From IMG/VR virus record IMGVR_UViG_3300022660_000042: 64,000 nucleotides of DNA. One strand, 5' to 3'. This DNA comes from a virus (lineage: Duplodnaviria > Heunggongvirae > Uroviricota > Caudoviricetes). The notes under the pieces are model-generated. The model was not told where the DNA came from. It worked only from the letters and a program-made list of their open reading frames with translations, and did no database searches. A program made the translations under genes and the position numbers. This document shows, piece after piece, positions 898 through 38,804 of the stretch; position 1 is the first letter of the stretch, and every line of letters begins with the position of its first letter.

Positions 898-999
898 CTA
901 GATGACCCTGTGCTTGTGTCGATCCTTATCATGCTTACCGAAACCTCGTCCGTCGCGGCGAGTCTTGCAATCATGAGTGTCAACTACAAACTTAGTCAT
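898..999 (-). CDS. Putative attenuator leader peptide MTKFVVDTHDCKTRRDGRGFGKHDKDRHKHRVI (D/R/K/H/G-rich)
   Basis: AGGAAAAA SD before ATG 999; the track start at 1131 overlaps a tRNA; GCACAGGGTC at 904-913 can pair with the terminator 5' arm. Confidence 0.75.
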   Translation of the reverse strand: MTKFVVDTHDCKTRRDGRGFGKHDKDRHKHRVI

Positions 1000-1072: not shown

Positions 1073-1146
1073 TGGAAATAAGAGTTGGACTCGAACCAAC
1101 GATCTTTGCATTGCTGCAACGCTCTAACCAACTGAGCTATCTCATT
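1073..1146 (-). tRNA. Atypical tRNA (Cys-like GCA, T73, encoded CCA) with a 4-6 nt anticodon loop
   Basis: Good acceptor, D and T arms; anticodon arm TTGCA-GCAA-TGCAA. Confidence 0.6.
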
Positions 1147-5284: not shown

Positions 5285-5348
5285 TGTTATTTTTCCTTTT
5301 TCTTTAAATATAAAAAAAGGATTGACTTTCGTCAACCCTTTAATATAG

Positions 5349-5423: not shown

Positions 5424-5428
5424 ATTAG

Positions 5429-5502
5429 TGGATCCAGTGGTATTCGAAACCACAACCTCCCGCTTGCAGGGCGGGTGCTCTGCCAAATTGAGCTATGAAC
5501 CC
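5429..5502 (-). tRNA. tRNA-Ala(TGC)
   Basis: Cloverleaf, G3:U70. Confidence 0.9.
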
Positions 5503-5509
5503 ATGTTAG

Positions 5510-5582
5510 TAGCGGCGTCGGGAATCGAACCCGAATGCCAGGATTGAAGGTCCCGTGAACTAAGCCGTTATTCTACGTCGCC
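5510..5582 (-). tRNA. tRNA-Glu(TTC)
   Basis: Cloverleaf, loop CC-TTC-AA. Confidence 0.85.
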
Positions 5583-5592
5583 ATAATTTTAG

Positions 5593-5665
5593 TAGTCCTA
5601 TACAGATTCGAACTGTAGTAACTTGGCTGAGAACCAAGTGGCCTTGACCGCTAGCCGATAGAACC
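5593..5665 (-). tRNA. tRNA-Glu(CTC)
   Basis: Cloverleaf, loop TT-CTC-AG. Confidence 0.85.
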
Positions 5666-5672
5666 ATATTAG

Positions 5673-5747
5673 TGCCACCGACAGGGGTCGAACCTGTGAC
5701 GCGAAGATCTTCGGTCTTCCGCTCTACCAAAACTGAGCTACAGTGGC
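5673..5747 (-). tRNA. tRNA-Phe(GAA)
   Basis: Cloverleaf. Confidence 0.9.
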
Positions 5748-5759
5748 ATATATTTTTTA

Positions 5760-5834
5760 TGGACCGTAGGAGGCTCGAACTCCTGACCCCCAGAATGCAA
5801 ATCTGGTGCTCTACCAAAACTGAGCTAACAGCCC
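5760..5834 (-). tRNA. tRNA-Ala(TGC)
   Basis: Cloverleaf, G3:U70. Confidence 0.9.
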
Positions 5835-5884
5835 GAAAATAAAACTGACCTTACTCATCTCAACGCGTACTATTGACTTTCGGT

Positions 5885-5957
5885 AAGCGCATACGGGATT
5901 CGAACCCGTGACCAGCGGCCTTCACACCGCCTGTTCTACCGCCGAACAAAATGCGTT
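5885..5957 (-). tRNA. Degenerate tRNA (His GTG or Phe GAA ambiguous)
   Basis: Good T and D arms; anticodon arm GCGG-TGTGAAGG-CCGC is irregular. Confidence 0.5.
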
Positions 5958-5968
5958 ATCAGTTTTAG

Positions 5969-6042
5969 TGGACACATATGGGATTCGAACCCATGACGTT
6001 TTCCCTGCCAGGGAAACATTCTACCAACTGAATTAATGGCCC
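5969..6042 (-). tRNA. tRNA-Ala(GGC)
   Basis: G3:U70; 1-nt bulge in acceptor; near duplicate of 6137..6210. Confidence 0.85.
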
Positions 6043-6053
6043 ATGATTTTTAG

Positions 6054-6127
6054 TAGCGCTGTCGGGACTCGAACCCGAATTTCCGACTTGAAAGGCCGGT
6101 GAACTGAACCAGTTATTCGACAGCGCC
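6054..6127 (-). tRNA. tRNA-Glu(TTC)
   Basis: Cloverleaf. Confidence 0.9.
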
Positions 6128-6136
6128 GAAATTTAG

Positions 6137-6210
6137 TGGACACATATGGGATTCGAACCCATGACGTTCTGCGTGCAAAGCAGACATTCTACCAACTGAA
6201 TTAATGGCCC
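6137..6210 (-). tRNA. tRNA-Ala(TGC)
   Basis: G3:U70; same body as 5969..6042 with a different anticodon arm. Confidence 0.85.
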
Positions 6211-6219
6211 AAATGTTAG

Positions 6220-6292
6220 TACTCCGTCCCGGATTCGAACCGGGGTTATCCGATAGAAAGTCGGATGGCTTAAACCGCTGGCCGAACGGAGC
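6220..6292 (-). tRNA. tRNA-Glu(TTC)
   Basis: Cloverleaf. Confidence 0.9.
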
Positions 6293-6303
6293 ATATTTTG
6301 TAG

Positions 6304-6377
6304 TGCCAAGTTCCGGAGTCGAACCGGATTTCTGGGATTTTCAGTCCCGTCCATTCCCACGATTGGATGCCATGGCA
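6304..6377 (-). tRNA. tRNA-Phe(GAA), atypical D arm
   Basis: Loop CT-GAA-AA; mismatches in acceptor. Confidence 0.7.
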
Positions 6378-6411
6378 TAAAAGAAAAGTTCCTGTGCTTG
6401 TGCACAGGAAC
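6378..6411 (-). terminator. Attenuator terminator 2
   Basis: GTTCCTGTGC-ACAA-GCACAGGAAC + TTTTCTTTT. Confidence 0.9.
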
Positions 6412-6436
6412 CGTTTTTAAAACTCTAATCGGTTAA

Positions 6437-6550
6437 CTACCTGATCCTATGCACTGTATTTGAATCAAATGCTTCAAACGCTGCAGCTGCAAATTCAGCT
6501 GCGGCACGTTCTGCTGCAAAAAATTCATGTTCAAATACGTTCATAGTCAT
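6437..6550 (-). CDS. Putative attenuator leader peptide MTMNVFEHEFFAAERAAAEFAAAAFEAFDSNTVHRIR
   Basis: 10 Ala, 6 Phe, 5 Glu; precedes the Ala/Glu/Phe tRNA cluster; GTGCATAGGATC (6443-6454) is complementary to the terminator 5' arm. Confidence 0.9.
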   Translation of the reverse strand: MTMNVFEHEFFAAERAAAEFAAAAFEAFDSNTVHRIR

Positions 6551-6682
6551 TTTGTTACCTTTTGTTATTATATATAAAAATTTTTTTCCTGTTTTTGCAA
6601 AAGTTTGATTCGGCCAATGGACTCCATCCAAAGTTTTACGTCAGCTCTGCACCGAATCATCTGATGCATCAGTTATGTGTTA

Positions 6683-6711
6683 AATATAGTAAAAAGTTGT
6701 TGGTTTGTAAA
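6683..6711 (-). promoter_or_regulatory. Promoter TTTACA-N17-TATATT (repeated at 6926-6954 and 7169-7197)
   Basis: Three near-identical copies in a tandem unit. Confidence 0.75.
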
Positions 6712-6734
6712 CCCCTTTTTAAAATATTTTTTCG

Positions 6735-7201: not shown

Positions 7202-8539
7202 TTATTGTAACTTTTTTTCCTCCTTCAAGTTTTTTCTGGAACGTTCTTTTTGTTCTTCAAGTAACTTGTTGAAACCGTCAAGGTCAACGGTAAGGTTATG
7301 CTGTTCACAAAGCATTTGTGTCAAGTCGACAGGAAAACCATAAGTATCATAAAGCTTGAAAGAATCAAAACCAGACAATACATTTCCATCCATCTTGGAA
7401 ACAATATTGTTAAACTGCTTGATTCCGCTATCAAGGTTCTTCAAGAATCTTGATTCTTCATTCTTGATAACTTCAGTTACGAATTCTTGTCTTTCCTTAA
7501 TTTCCGGATATACGTCACCCATTACGTCGATAACAACCGGAACGAGCTTATACATAAACGGTTCATTGATATTTAACATCTTGCAGAACAAAGAACCTCT
7601 GCGAAGAAGCCTTCTCAATACATATCCGCTTCCCTTATTAGAAGGCTGAAGTCCGTCAGTAATAGAAAATACAAGAGAACGAATATGGTCACTGATAACC
7701 CTGTGAGGCGTGCCGGATTCATCATTCTTATATTCTACACCGCTAAGTTCAACAATCTTATCAATAAGTGGTTTAAACAAGTCGGTTTCATAATTACCGT
7801 TTGTATTCTGAAGAATAGAACAAATACGTTCAAATCCCATACCGGTGTCGATATTCTTCGTAGTCAACGGAATAAGCGTTCCATCAGAAAGTCTTTCTTT
7901 CTCCATGAATACAATATTCCAGATTTCTACGTAACGGTCATTTTCACCGTTTACACCAAGGATAGGATCCTTGAATGTTTCTTCTTGAGTATTCAAATCG
8001 CCACGGTCATAATGAATTTCAGAACAGGGACCGCATGGACCAGTATCACCCATTTCCCAGAAGTTATCTTTTTCTCCGAATCTCATAATACGGTCATCAG
8101 GTAGATTGGAAACTTCCTTCCAGATTTTCCAACTTTCATCATCGGTCTTATAAACAGAAACAAACAATCTTTCCTTAGGTAACTTCCATACTTTCGTTAA
8201 AAGCTCCCAAGACCAAGAAATAGATTCCTTTTTATAATAGTCATTGAAAGACCAGTTTCCAAGCATTTCAAAGAACGTATGATGATAGTTATCACGACCG
8301 ACAACATCGAGGTCATTATGCTTTCCAGATACACGTAAGCATTTCTGGCTGTTACATACACGTTTTAATCCTTGCGGGTTTTGACCAAAAAAGATTGGTT
8401 TAAACTGGTTCATTCCGGAATTCGTGAATAACAACGTCGGATCGTTATTGGGAATAACGGAAGAAGACTTGATAAACTGATGATTTTTTGACATAAAGAA
8501 ATCAATAAAACTTTTTCTAATTTCGCTCGAGGTAAGCAT
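7202..8539 (-). CDS. alaS: Alanyl-tRNA synthetase, N-terminal aminoacylation domain only (445 aa)
   Basis: DPTLLFTNSGMNQFK, SQKCLRVSGKHNDL, HHTFFEMLGNWSF, DTGMGFERI, FKLYDTYGFPVDLT; stops before the editing domain. Confidence 0.95.
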   Translation of the reverse strand: MLTSSEIRKSFIDFFMSKNHQFIKSSSVIPNNDPTLLFTNSGMNQFKPIFFGQNPQGLKRVCNSQKCLRVSGKHNDLDVVGRDNYHHTFFEMLGNWSFNDYYKKESISWSWELLTKVWKLPKERLFVSVYKTDDESWKIWKEVSNLPDDRIMRFGEKDNFWEMGDTGPCGPCSEIHYDRGDLNTQEETFKDPILGVNGENDRYVEIWNIVFMEKERLSDGTLIPLTTKNIDTGMGFERICSILQNTNGNYETDLFKPLIDKIVELSGVEYKNDESGTPHRVISDHIRSLVFSITDGLQPSNKGSGYVLRRLLRRGSLFCKMLNINEPFMYKLVPVVIDVMGDVYPEIKERQEFVTEVIKNEESRFLKNLDSGIKQFNNIVSKMDGNVLSGFDSFKLYDTYGFPVDLTQMLCEQHNLTVDLDGFNKLLEEQKERSRKNLKEEKKLQ

Positions 8540-8551
8540 TTTTATTCTCCT

Positions 8552-8587
8552 ATAAAAATTAAAAGGTTCCTGTTGTGCACAGGAACC
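8552..8587 (-). terminator. Attenuator terminator 3 (before alaS)
   Basis: GGTTCCTGT-GCACA-ACAGGAACC + TTTTAATTTTT. Confidence 0.85.
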
Positions 8588-8622: not shown

Positions 8623-8682
8623 TTATGTCATAATATATGCGGCTGCTGCGAAAATGCGAGTATTTAATATATTCATCGTCAT
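8623..8682 (-). CDS. Putative alaS leader peptide MTMNILNTRIFAAAAYIMT (not in ORF track)
   Basis: Four tandem Ala codons GCA GCA GCC GCA; lies between a TATATA promoter and the terminator. Confidence 0.8.
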   Translation of the reverse strand: MTMNILNTRIFAAAAYIMT

Positions 8683-15789: not shown

Positions 15790-16112
15790 TTTCAAACACA
15801 CTGCCGGAATCCCGATTCTCCACCGGCCATGACGTCTATCAACTGCACATTCTATCGGTCGACTTCTTATAGGGTACAAACTCCGTCATCTAGCATTTTA
15901 TTGATCGTCTAGCTATATCAAACTCACAAAATACTCTTCATGCCACGCTGCTACATGAATTCAGCGCTCACTAAACGTAGTATACATCGATTTCTCTATA
16001 CAAGAGGTTTAGCTCAACGCGTTGTCAGGCCAGGGCACTTACGCATTCCCGAGTGTTATCCCAGCTCTTCAGTCTTAATGATGGTGCGTCCGTCAAAAAG
16101 CACACGCGCTTA
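15790..16112 (-). ncRNA. Candidate large ncRNA
   Basis: GC-richer, no credible ORF, own TATATAAT promoter at about 16117-16130. Confidence 0.45.
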
Positions 16113-16139
16113 AGTATATTATATATAAAAAATTTCGTA

Positions 16140-19747: not shown

Positions 19748-20518
19748 TTATTCAAACACATTTACCAAATTTTTATTTGGTAAAAAATGCTTACGTTTTT
19801 GTTCATCATGTTTACTATAGATTGGAATATATTTTTTAAACTTATTATGTAAAGCAATTTTAGATATTCCAAGTTCAATAGCCATATCTTCTAGTTTGTT
19901 ATAATTACCAGAATGATATTTATTCCATAACTTTTCAGCCAATATTTTTCCATTATCATGAAGTAATTTTATCCAAGCAGCTTTATTTATTGTTATACTA
20001 TACTTACCAGATTTTTTTACTTTAATAATACTAGTTTCTCCATGAAAAAGATTTCGACCTTCAATCCAAAATGGTTCTAGTGGTTTTTCTTTAAACTTTT
20101 TAGATTCTCCAGTATTACGATTTGTATACCATTTAGTTCCAAATTGTGAATTTCTTTTTCCTGATTGGCTTATACTTGTTAATTTACTTATTGCCGTAGA
20201 AAATTCAATTCTTAATTTTTCATAAACACGCGAATTAATATATCGTTTATGATTTTCATTAATACCTTGCATTCTCCATAATGCACATAACATTTTATTT
20301 CTTTCAATAGTTCCTTTCTCATACATTTTAACAAGTAACCAATGACAGATAAAATGTTCTCTAGCAGTTAACTTAACAAGATTTTCTTTTTCGTTAGTTC
20401 CTCCTAATGATTTAGGTTGAATATGATGTTTTTCAAAATAACCTAAACTTCGCTTCCCATTTTCATTCTCCGTTTTTGCTTTTTCAATTATTTTATAATA
20501 TATGTTTTTGTAATTCAT
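19748..20518 (-). CDS. HNH homing endonuclease
   Basis: EKHHIQPKSLGG..NLVKLTAREHFICHWLL; NUMOD-like SQFGTKW. Confidence 0.9.
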   Translation of the reverse strand: MNYKNIYYKIIEKAKTENENGKRSLGYFEKHHIQPKSLGGTNEKENLVKLTAREHFICHWLLVKMYEKGTIERNKMLCALWRMQGINENHKRYINSRVYEKLRIEFSTAISKLTSISQSGKRNSQFGTKWYTNRNTGESKKFKEKPLEPFWIEGRNLFHGETSIIKVKKSGKYSITINKAAWIKLLHDNGKILAEKLWNKYHSGNYNKLEDMAIELGISKIALHNKFKKYIPIYSKHDEQKRKHFLPNKNLVNVFE

Positions 20519-20821: not shown

Positions 20822-20884
20822 CTAATCCTGTAGTACCTCAGGGTTATTCGGATTGACGGTATTTGTGTTCATCGTGAAAGTCAT
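20822..20884 (-). CDS. Putative attenuator leader peptide MTFTMNTNTVNPNNPEVLQD (not in ORF track)
   Basis: 5 Asn, 4 Thr, 2 Pro, 2 Val, 2 Met; CTACAGGATT at 20824-20833 is complementary to the terminator 5' arm. Confidence 0.88.
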   Translation of the reverse strand: MTFTMNTNTVNPNNPEVLQD

Positions 20885-28074: not shown

Positions 28075-28142
28075 AGTTTTTCCTTTTGTTAAAGTTTTTC
28101 TATAATATAATAAAAAGGTTGACATTCGTCAACCCTTTTTAG

Positions 28143-28231
28143 TGGACCCGACGAGATTCGAACTCGCGACCCATCGCTTAAAAGGCGATTGCTCTACGAT
28201 GTTGCCATCTAACCAACTGAGCTACAGATCC
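28143..28231 (-). tRNA. tRNA-Lys(TTT) with an extra hairpin in the D loop
   Basis: D loop contains GATG-GCAA-CATC. Confidence 0.8.
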
Positions 28232-28760: not shown

Positions 28761-28838
28761 CTATTCGCTACCCATAGCAAAACACACAGCAACTTGCTGT
28801 TTTCTTATCTGTTTTACTTGTTTAACGAACCTTAACAT
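28761..28838 (-). CDS. Putative attenuator leader peptide MLRFVKQVKQIRKQQVAVCFAMGSE (not in ORF track)
   Basis: 4 Gln, 3 Lys, 2 Arg (AGG/AGA), Ile ATA; TGCTATGGG at 28771-28779 is complementary to the terminator 5' arm. Confidence 0.85.
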   Translation of the reverse strand: MLRFVKQVKQIRKQQVAVCFAMGSE

Positions 28839-35154: not shown

Positions 35155-35455
35155 GTTGAACGGAGAGATCTAGCCTAGCAGGAATCACTAGACTAAACAC
35201 AGCTACTCTACTTTTGGCATAAAGTTTCGCGTGTCAATCTGGGGGACTTATGAACACTCTTACTGGTCGGTCATCCTGTACTCAGGCTACATAGTGTTCA
35301 GCCATGGCGGCAAGTGTATAGTTTGCTAAGCTATACTCGATAATCGAATCGCCTTTAACGTATACTTCCGATTTCAAAGTATACAGCGGCTTAGCCTCTA
35401 CCGATAATACCATTGGATTGGATTTCGTTCCGAGGACTAAGGCTCGAATGTCAGG
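35155..35455 (-). ncRNA. Candidate large structured ncRNA
   Basis: About 300 nt without ORF, TATATT at its 5' end, many hairpins. Confidence 0.5.
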
Positions 35456-38425: not shown

Positions 38426-38450
38426 AGTATGTTTCCTTTTTAAATTTTAA

Positions 38451-38804
38451 TGGACCCGTTGGGAGTCGAACCCAAGTCTTGAATAACTTCAATATCCGTT
38501 CCTACAAGCTTTCCCTTCGAATTTACTTATTTGTCATACCTATGCCCTGAAGGTCGGCGTCGGTATAAACTAGCCTGTGATTTTCGGAAATAATAGACAG
38601 ACTTAACTATTTCCTAGCCCATTTGCGACTGGACTCTACACCCAACGGGCGAACGATATAGGTCCAGGGTTGCTATTGATTAAGCAGCCATTGCGTATGT
38701 ATTAGCAATTATTGTTTTCAGACTTTTTAACGTGTGTTTTCCCTCGTCTGAGACCACGGCTTGCAACTAATATATTCATCACCCAATCGAAACCAGGCGA
38801 GCCC
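38451..38804 (-). ncRNA. ssrA: tmRNA, tag (A)ANTYAMAA* at 38680-38706
   Basis: 5' GGGCTCGCCTGGTTTCGA, 3' GGGTTCGACTCCCAACGGGTCCA, G3:U70, resume context ATAATT-GCT, 354 nt. Confidence 0.92.

Follow-up and report, generated by a model that had tools for sequence, protein, structure and literature searches.

A leader open reading frame and a terminator in front of eleven tRNA genes

The 64,000-nucleotide (nt) window analyzed here is the reverse strand of positions 92026-156025 in a 411,059-bp viral record (IMGVR_UViG_3300022660_000042), which is 98% complete according to CheckV and has a G+C content of 38%. The DNA runs that contain this phage are faecal and bovine-gut metagenomes, and the 411-kb phage is a gut phage of ruminants. 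Its genome (G000 in coordinates outside the window) holds six clusters of transfer RNA (tRNA) genes, lettered A to F, each preceded by a short ATG-initiated open reading frame (ORF) and a hairpin terminator; together, the six units cover tRNAs for all 20 amino acids. This study concerns unit C, in which a leader ORF rich in Ala, Glu, and Phe codons stands in front of tRNA genes for the same three amino acids. Its putative attenuator is small, with a length of ~170 nt and a sigma-70-type promoter. All features of unit C described below lie on the minus strand of the window.

The leader ORF (6437..6550) comprises 37 codons followed by TAG and encodes the peptide MTMNVFEHEFFAAERAAAEFAAAAFEAFDSNTVHRIR. 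ORF lengths compared under reassignment of TAG, TGA, or TAA gave no recoding signal, and an alternative genetic code was rejected; the phage uses the standard code, and the TAG ending the leader is taken as a stop. A Shine-Dalgarno-like AAAGG (6558..6562) is located 7 nt before the ATG at 6550. AAAGG or AAGGA is found at an equal distance in five of the six leaders, with unit B having AAAGAGAG instead. An earlier, sequence-only reading of this DNA had reported that 21 of residues 6-28 are Ala, Glu, or Phe, and translation of the minus-strand ORF 6550..6437 bears this out. This sensor run (codons 6-28, 6467..6535) is interrupted only by H8 and R15, and all 21 of its Ala, Glu, and Phe codons are decodable by the downstream tRNAs. 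Ala, Glu, and Phe account for 21 of 36 leader residues as compared to 17% in the long ORFs of the phage (binomial P = 4e-8). When 23-codon windows were compared in six frames across the whole 411-kb genome, the 21/23 at leader C was the sole maximum, and the runner-up reached 16/23.

The codon usage within the leader was also considered. The same reading had stressed that all Glu codons are GAA, which is true (5/5) but uninformative because GAA already makes up 87% of Glu codons genome-wide. A more unusual bias is the exclusive use of TTT for Phe (6/6 vs 39% genome-wide), TTT being the wobble codon for anticodon GAA. The Ala codons are GCA (6), GCT (2), GCC (1), and GCG (1), which upholds the further claim that most are GCA, and three Ala-UGC and three Glu-UUC genes do lie downstream as had been stated.

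An intrinsic terminator identified by hairpin scan and folding (6387..6412) begins 24 nt past the leader stop. It consists of 11 pairs (6 G-C) closed by an ACAA loop, with a predicted stability of -18.8 kcal/mol, and is divided into a 5' arm (6412..6402, "region 3") and a 3' arm (6397..6388, "region 4"), followed by the U-rich tail TTTCTTTTAT (6377..6386). The first gene that would be regulated, a tRNA-Phe(GAA)-like gene (6304..6376), starts 1 nt past the U-tail. It was detected by ARAGORN at a lowered threshold and scored 23.7 bits with Rfam, below the cut-off, and its counterpart in the related viral contig L063 (L-numbers denote such contigs) is called Phe by ARAGORN at the default threshold. 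Ten more tRNA genes follow (5428..6292) in the order Glu-UUC, Ala-UGC, Glu-UUC, Ala-GGC, an odd tRNA, Ala-UGC, Phe-GAA, Glu-CUC, Glu-UUC, and Ala-UGC, and a terminator-like hairpin from the hairpin scan (5316..5341) closes the operon. The eleven genes behind leader C thus comprise Glu-UUC (three), Glu-CUC (one), Ala-UGC (three), Ala-GGC (one), Phe-GAA (one), the weaker Phe-GAA-like gene, and the odd one.

The anticodon loop of the odd tRNA (5957..5885) is 6 nt long, its acceptor stem contains an A:C mismatch, and ARAGORN calls the gene "?(Ser|Phe)". Its anticodon stem-loop is identical in contigs L048, L063, and L090, the differences there being confined to single bases of the D loop and T stem. 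The His codons of the leader had been matched to a GTG-type tRNA at 5885; this link is not supported, as the 6-nt loop can be read as GAA-like as readily as GTG-like, its invariance in the three contigs leaves no information to be drawn from variation, and H34 is accounted for by the pairing arm described below.

Transcription of unit C may begin at a sigma-70-type promoter found by promoter scan, P1 (6683..6711; TTTACA, 17 nt, TATATT; 10/12 matches). P1 lies inside a conserved box, GGGGTTTACAA-N15-CTATATT, that is common to the tRNA units and precedes clusters A, B, C, E, and F. The 105-nt stretch that separates P1 from the leader (6682..6578) folded no better than shuffled sequences (z = -1.6) and had no Rfam match. 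A genome motif search revealed a second conserved element, TTATATATAATA (6566..6577), ~15 nt before the ribosome-binding site. Eight copies are present in the 411 kb, all on one strand; tRNA leaders account for five of them, and another two lie directly at HNH-gene start codons. The exact motif occurs in units B to F, and unit A has a shorter form. In a DNA self-search, the 5' part of the unit C leader region recurred at three further genome sites, and the segment around TTATATATAATA is the portion of unit C that is repeated elsewhere. TTATATATAATA is possibly a second, phage-type -10 element.

Six leaders match the tRNA clusters behind them

The codon content of each leader mirrors the tRNA genes that follow. 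Unit A (window 28838..28761) has a leader rich in Gln/Lys/Arg before tRNAs Gln, Lys, Arg, and Gln, and unit B (window 20884..20822) has one rich in Thr/Asn/Pro/Val/Met before Asn, Pro, Thr, Met, Val, and Ile. Unit C (window 6550..6437) pairs Ala/Glu/Phe with Ala, Glu, and Phe. The leader of unit D (window 999..898) is rich in Asp/Lys/Gly/His/Arg, and its cluster encodes Asp, Lys, Gly, and His tRNAs plus a degenerate Arg-ACG-like gene recognized with Rfam. Lys, Gly, His, and Arg tRNAs beyond the window edge had been predicted from a sister attenuator at 836-999, and they are present. The remaining two units lie outside the window: unit E (G000:C1:171203-171289), with a Leu/Ser/Trp-rich leader before tRNAs Trp, Leu, and Ser, and unit F (G000:C1:212299-212391), with a Tyr/Cys/Ser/Met-rich leader before tRNAs Tyr, Cys, Met, and Ser. 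Among all 720 possible assignments of leaders to clusters, the actual one is the best at both the amino-acid and the codon-anticodon levels. The weakest match is unit A (9/24), where no clear antiterminator arm is found either.

The match extends to synonymous codons. Lys is encoded only by AAA in leader A (3/3), whose cluster has Lys-UUU, and only by AAG in leader D (5/5), whose cluster has two Lys-CUU genes. Similarly, the Ser codons are AGY in leader E (5/5), with Ser-GCU, and UCN in leader F (5/5), with Ser-GGA/UGA/CGA. Taken as the product of genome-wide codon frequencies, the joint chance of the Lys and Ser partition is ~4e-6. Such a partition is sensible only if ribosomes read the codons and the supply of specific tRNAs counts.

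Leader F contains an in-frame TAA after codon 8, behind which the Cys/Ser/Tyr/Met-rich run continues in frame; the same is seen at L059:9138-9164, and the leader F ORF is uninterrupted in the related phages L033 and L088. No TAA-suppressor tRNA was found for leader F. A candidate suppressor with a TTA anticodon at the end of cluster A, proposed by ARAGORN in intron mode, is actually a tRNA-Lys(UUU) (28231..28142) with a 13-nt D-arm insert and thus offers no explanation for the in-frame TAA. Under the attenuation model set out below, the early stop would leave the antiterminator unmasked and the Tyr/Cys/Met/Ser cluster constitutively on.

Leaders and clusters vary together in related phages

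Searches of GenBank phages revealed no close relative, with only tRNA and alaS fragments matched, and no viral contig matched an exact 32-mer of the leader or the alaS peptide patterns. Relatives were instead reached by scanning IMG/VR for the promoter box together with the motif of the untranslated region, which yielded more than 100 loci, many of them on contigs of 165-424 kb. These were filtered by a fixed rule that took the first ATG downstream of the motif and required an ORF 6-70 codons long with a tRNA no more than 450 nt away. This left 43 candidate leader/cluster pairs from more than 20 contigs, ~40 of the pairs being convincing. Across 22 non-identical pairs, each cluster decodes 29-72% of the codons of its own leader as compared to 9-21% for other clusters, and none of 100,000 permutations reached the observed sum. 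Because the 22 pairs are related by descent, contrasts within a unit type are more telling.

Several such contrasts were found. Among Trp/Leu/Ser clusters, those that also carry Cys and Gln-CUG tRNAs are preceded by leaders with two Cys codons (TGT/TGC) and two CAG codons, and those with only the Cys tRNA have Cys codons and a sensor run without a Gln codon. The variant leader in L058 ends in a single CAA, which is not readable by Gln-CUG. Both tRNAs and both codons are absent from the Trp/Leu/Ser unit of the present phage. Where a Tyr/Met/Ser cluster has no Cys tRNA, its leader has no Cys either. Further codon-tRNA pairs in relatives include CAG with Gln-CUG, CAA with Gln-UUG, CGC and CGA with Arg-ACG, and AGA with Arg-UCU. 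In the closest C-type relatives the peptide is kept: changes in the sensor run are only synonymous (TTT>TTC, GCT>GCC), and the spacer codons 29-31 vary in amino acid at residues 29 and 31.

A predicted pairing arm at the end of the leader

The sequence-only reading had also noted pairing across nearly the whole length of two segments of unit C, and folding agrees. The segment GTGCATAGGATC (6443..6454; codons 33-36) can pair with the 5' arm of the terminator at 11 of 12 positions, including one G:U, for -12.5 kcal/mol, and constitutes a putative antiterminator arm ("region 2"). It starts 12 nt past the last sensor codon, the intervening spacer consisting of the four codons Asp-Ser-Asn-Thr. Leader C is strongly structured (z = -5.3), and its minimum-energy fold without the terminator 3' arm pairs arm 2 with arm 3. 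Folds of the leaders that ended at the terminator loop paired the terminator 5' arm with the final ORF codons in five of the six units.

The effect of a translating ribosome was modeled in unit C by masking a 30-nt footprint during folding. With the A site at codon 6, 12, 20, 24, or 28, all 11 nt of arm 3 were paired to GTGCATAGGATC and the adjacent AACCG. Once the A site was moved to codon 33 or the stop, arm 3 lost its pairing with arm 2 and became free for the terminator. For a ribosome stalled at the last sensor codon, the 12-nt spacer would put arm 2 immediately beyond the footprint.

The arms change together across unit types, giving arm/terminator pairs of ACAGGA/TCCTGT, GTGGGAAC/GTTCCCAC, GTAGGGAC/GTTCCTAC, GGTGAC/GTCAC, and GCGGCA/TGTCGC. 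Cognate arm duplexes sum to -120.6 kcal/mol as compared to -78.8 +/- 8.1 kcal/mol when permuted, and none of 100,000 permutations was as good. Within the 411-kb genome, the TTCCTGT...ACAGGAA type of hairpin is restricted to four units, namely A, C, D, and one in front of alaS. Its confinement to attenuator units argues that the units are paralogues with rewritten leaders.

The unit directly before alaS, a truncated alanyl-tRNA synthetase gene (7202..8539), consists of an ORF (8682..8623), a hairpin (8587..8565), and a T-rich tail (8564..8551). Its leader has 19 codons, starts with MTMN, and contains four tandem Ala codons before a TTCCTGT-type terminator. This putative attenuator is a paralogue of the tRNA units that precedes a synthetase gene and can be compared to pheM-pheST.

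A model for attenuation of the tRNA operon

Unit C is probably a ribosome-mediated (leader-peptide) transcription attenuator that gates the Ala/Glu/Phe tRNA operon by sensing the supply of particular tRNA species. A leader ORF with a start and a ribosome-binding site, cognate codons, and an intrinsic terminator are all present, and the computed folds add an antiterminator that is mutually exclusive with the terminator and that a ribosome at the ORF end would mask. Sequence elements, geometry, statistics, paralogy in the genome, and covariation in relatives were computed directly; from these we infer translation of the ORF, a response of termination to ribosome position, and the nature of the physiological trigger. 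The original proposal of a leader-peptide attenuator within a genome-wide system is thus supported by anatomy, statistics, paralogy, and covariation, with the mechanism itself read from sequence.

In the proposed mechanism, transcription would start at P1, with the TATATAATA motif as a possible second start, and a ribosome would translate the 37-codon leader. If Ala (GCN), Glu (GAA), and Phe (TTT) codons were decoded rapidly, the ribosome would reach codons 33-38 and cover GTGCATAGGATC, allowing the terminator to form and transcription to stop at ~6377-6386. If a matching aminoacyl-tRNA were scarce, slow decoding at any of the 21 sensor codons would stall the ribosome upstream. GTGCATAGGATC would then pair with the terminator 5' arm, no terminator would form, and RNA polymerase would enter the eleven tRNA genes. 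The new tRNAs would relieve the stall, amounting to negative feedback on tRNA supply.

A broader interpretation, which we offer tentatively, is that the six units might perform an isoacceptor-resolved surveillance, with each leader serving as a checklist for its own tRNA block and switching on whichever block is depleted in the host. Such depletion could be caused by anticodon nucleases of host defense or by the phage's own shut-off.

Assembled contigs from three RNA-library studies span leader C and cross the terminator into the tRNAs (X15, 6215-6637; X17, 6234-6554). Contig X16 covers 6377-6661, continues from there at 5679, and resembles a relative with another tRNA order. These contigs are compatible with read-through but count as evidence in neither direction, as DNA carry-over is possible and contigs show no 3' ends.

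Several observations weigh against attenuation as proposed. At equilibrium, the terminator (-18.8 kcal/mol) exceeds the antiterminator (~-11 to -12.5 kcal/mol), so the switch would have to be kinetic, as in classical attenuators. Even without a ribosome, the pre-terminator transcript is still predicted to pair arm 2 with arm 3, from which read-through would be expected for an untranslated leader, in contrast to trp. The folds of unit C contain no clear anti-antiterminator (1:2); the full-length fold pairs the start of the ORF with arm 2. The antiterminator of unit C by itself is not significant against single-sequence shuffles (z about -1), and such tests are weak for several units, so its support comes from position and from covariation across units. 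No convincing arm 2 was found near the stop in three units (G000 unit A, L034, and the B unit of L024). The C2-type leaders of relatives, a second and less pure C subtype, contain additional Ile and Val codons for which the cluster does not always supply a tRNA. Val tRNAs are present in several of these clusters, but the L063 sensor run has two Val codons before a cluster without a Val tRNA. Finally, a weak promoter-like site (9/12) inside the operon (5863..5836) could drive the last five tRNAs independently.

Alternative explanations

The same hardware could respond to amino-acid starvation, with the Ala, Glu, and Phe pools as the signal and tRNA synthesis coupled to the nutrition of the host. 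What a stalled ribosome reports is aminoacyl-tRNA, a quantity set by amino acid and tRNA alike, and the known leader-peptide attenuators are all interpreted as amino-acid sensors. Extra tRNA, however, gives no relief from amino-acid starvation, and the partition of isoacceptors among leaders (Lys AAA/AAG, Ser AGY/UCN, and Gln CAA/CAG) would be meaningless for amino-acid sensing, which makes this source of the signal unlikely.

Alternatively, the terminator may be a constitutive transcript end or insulator, with the ORF encoding a small peptide or acting through messenger RNA stability, processing, or Rho, such that the tRNAs are expressed independently of ribosome position. The strength of the hairpin and the weak internal promoter-like site are in line with this, as are leader peptides known elsewhere to act in trans (PMC7298713). 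This explanation nevertheless leaves unaccounted for both the codon-anticodon match in six units and 22 variants and the covarying, terminator-complementary arm at the stop codon. The promoter scan, moreover, revealed no promoter-like site between terminator C and the first tRNA gene, which lies 1 nt past the U-tail. We consider a purely constitutive terminator very unlikely.

The match between leader codons and downstream anticodons would also be expected if the leader RNA sensed tRNA directly, as in a T-box, through ribosome-free codon-anticodon pairing. Rfam families for His, Trp, Thr, Leu, and Phe leaders and for the T-box gave no gathering-score match over the 64 kb and none even at E <= 5 within 6290-6730, and no T-box-like bulge for the NCCA end was seen. 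The codons, moreover, form one in-frame run with an ATG, a Shine-Dalgarno-like site, and a stop exactly at arm 2, so that direct sensing appears highly improbable. As for a chance juxtaposition of an alanine-rich small ORF and a terminator, small ORFs are common, but composition, the 720-permutation test, the relatives, covariation, and the genome maximum each reject it, and it can be set aside.

Other elements among the tRNA clusters

Two homologous HNH endonuclease genes (20518..19748, and from 706 to the edge of the window) are inserted in tRNA clusters, each immediately behind a tRNA gene. TTATATATAATA runs directly into the ATG of both genes, an arrangement suggesting that this motif is a promoter for short-leader or leaderless transcripts. 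A further copy of TTATATATAATA (~16128..15890; G000:C1:139898-140140) is followed by a G+C-rich stretch of ~240 nt upstream of tRNA-Met that contains no plausible ORF and may be a structured RNA.

Upstream of leader D lies a tRNA-like RNA (1146..1073) whose anticodon arm is replaced by a short stem with a GNRA tetraloop. Most relatives encode a CCA end, and the stem covaries as TGCA/TGCA, CACC/GGTG, and TACC/GGTA. This RNA may be a processing or stabilizing element for the leader transcript. The Arg-ACG-like gene of unit D, outside the window (G000:C1:156174-156253), retains CTACGAA (Arg-ACG) as an intact anticodon loop; its D arm is truncated and its variable region is long. The gene occupies the place of a normal tRNA-Arg(ACG) in relatives and matches the CGC/CGA codons of leader D. 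The same translation-related region also encodes, on the minus strand, a cow-rumen-2 RNA (RF02947, 94.5 bits; 35239-35342) and a transfer-messenger RNA (tag ANTYAMAA; 38448-38804).

Relation to known systems and significance

The proposed device resembles the multivalent attenuators of enterobacteria (thrL for Thr and Ile; ilvL/ivbL for Ile/Leu/Val; also trpL, hisL, pheL, and leuL), in which a short leader with regulatory codons precedes an intrinsic terminator, several amino acids may be sensed per leader, and an alternative hairpin with its 5' arm at the end of the ORF is chosen by ribosome position. Unlike these, the phage unit would regulate eleven tRNA genes rather than biosynthetic enzymes, and its codons match the downstream isoacceptors. 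It also differs in its long sensor run (21 of 23 codons for three amino acids), in having no clear 1:2 hairpin, and in its six paralogous copies within one phage. In pheM of the Escherichia coli pheST operon, leader-peptide attenuation acts on the translation apparatus, and the phage has a similar unit before alaS; pheM, however, controls a synthetase gene and reads one amino acid, whereas the product of the phage unit is tRNA itself. T-box riboswitches likewise read tRNA status through codon-anticodon specificity and switch between terminator and antiterminator. They do so by ribosome-free binding of uncharged tRNA to a conserved stem I and T-box, and such elements were not matched in the phage unit.

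To our knowledge, and throughout the literature searched, tRNA genes are treated as promoter-controlled, through growth rate and the stringent response. The mechanism class is classical; what is new is tRNA genes as the target, the codon-anticodon checklist, and the genome-wide split into six units. Full-text literature searches revealed no description of leader-peptide attenuation of tRNA genes, phage or cellular, nor of demand-sensing control of phage tRNA transcription. Phage tRNA genes have been described as counter-defense against tRNA-targeting immunity (PMC10264068, PMC11555353, PMC12409363), which provides a rationale for a near-complete tRNA set when host tRNAs are cleaved. Unlike those studies, which concern the sequence and presence of the tRNAs, the phage unit described here would represent demand-sensing control of their transcription.

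If the sensor codons are those read by the anticodons under control, the arrangement would be a direct feedback loop on decoding capacity, and it would offer a testable answer to the old question of when, and for what reason, the tRNA genes of large phages are expressed. The six paralogous units, with their rewritten leaders and covarying hairpins, form a natural mutational series for attenuator design, and the unit could serve as a sensor of codon-specific translation speed. If the surveillance interpretation were true, phage tRNAs would be an inducible, self-limiting counter-defense rather than a constitutive codon supplement. The system also connects with recent studies of tRNA-cleaving immunity, in which phage tRNAs serve as escape devices (PMC10264068, PMC11555353).
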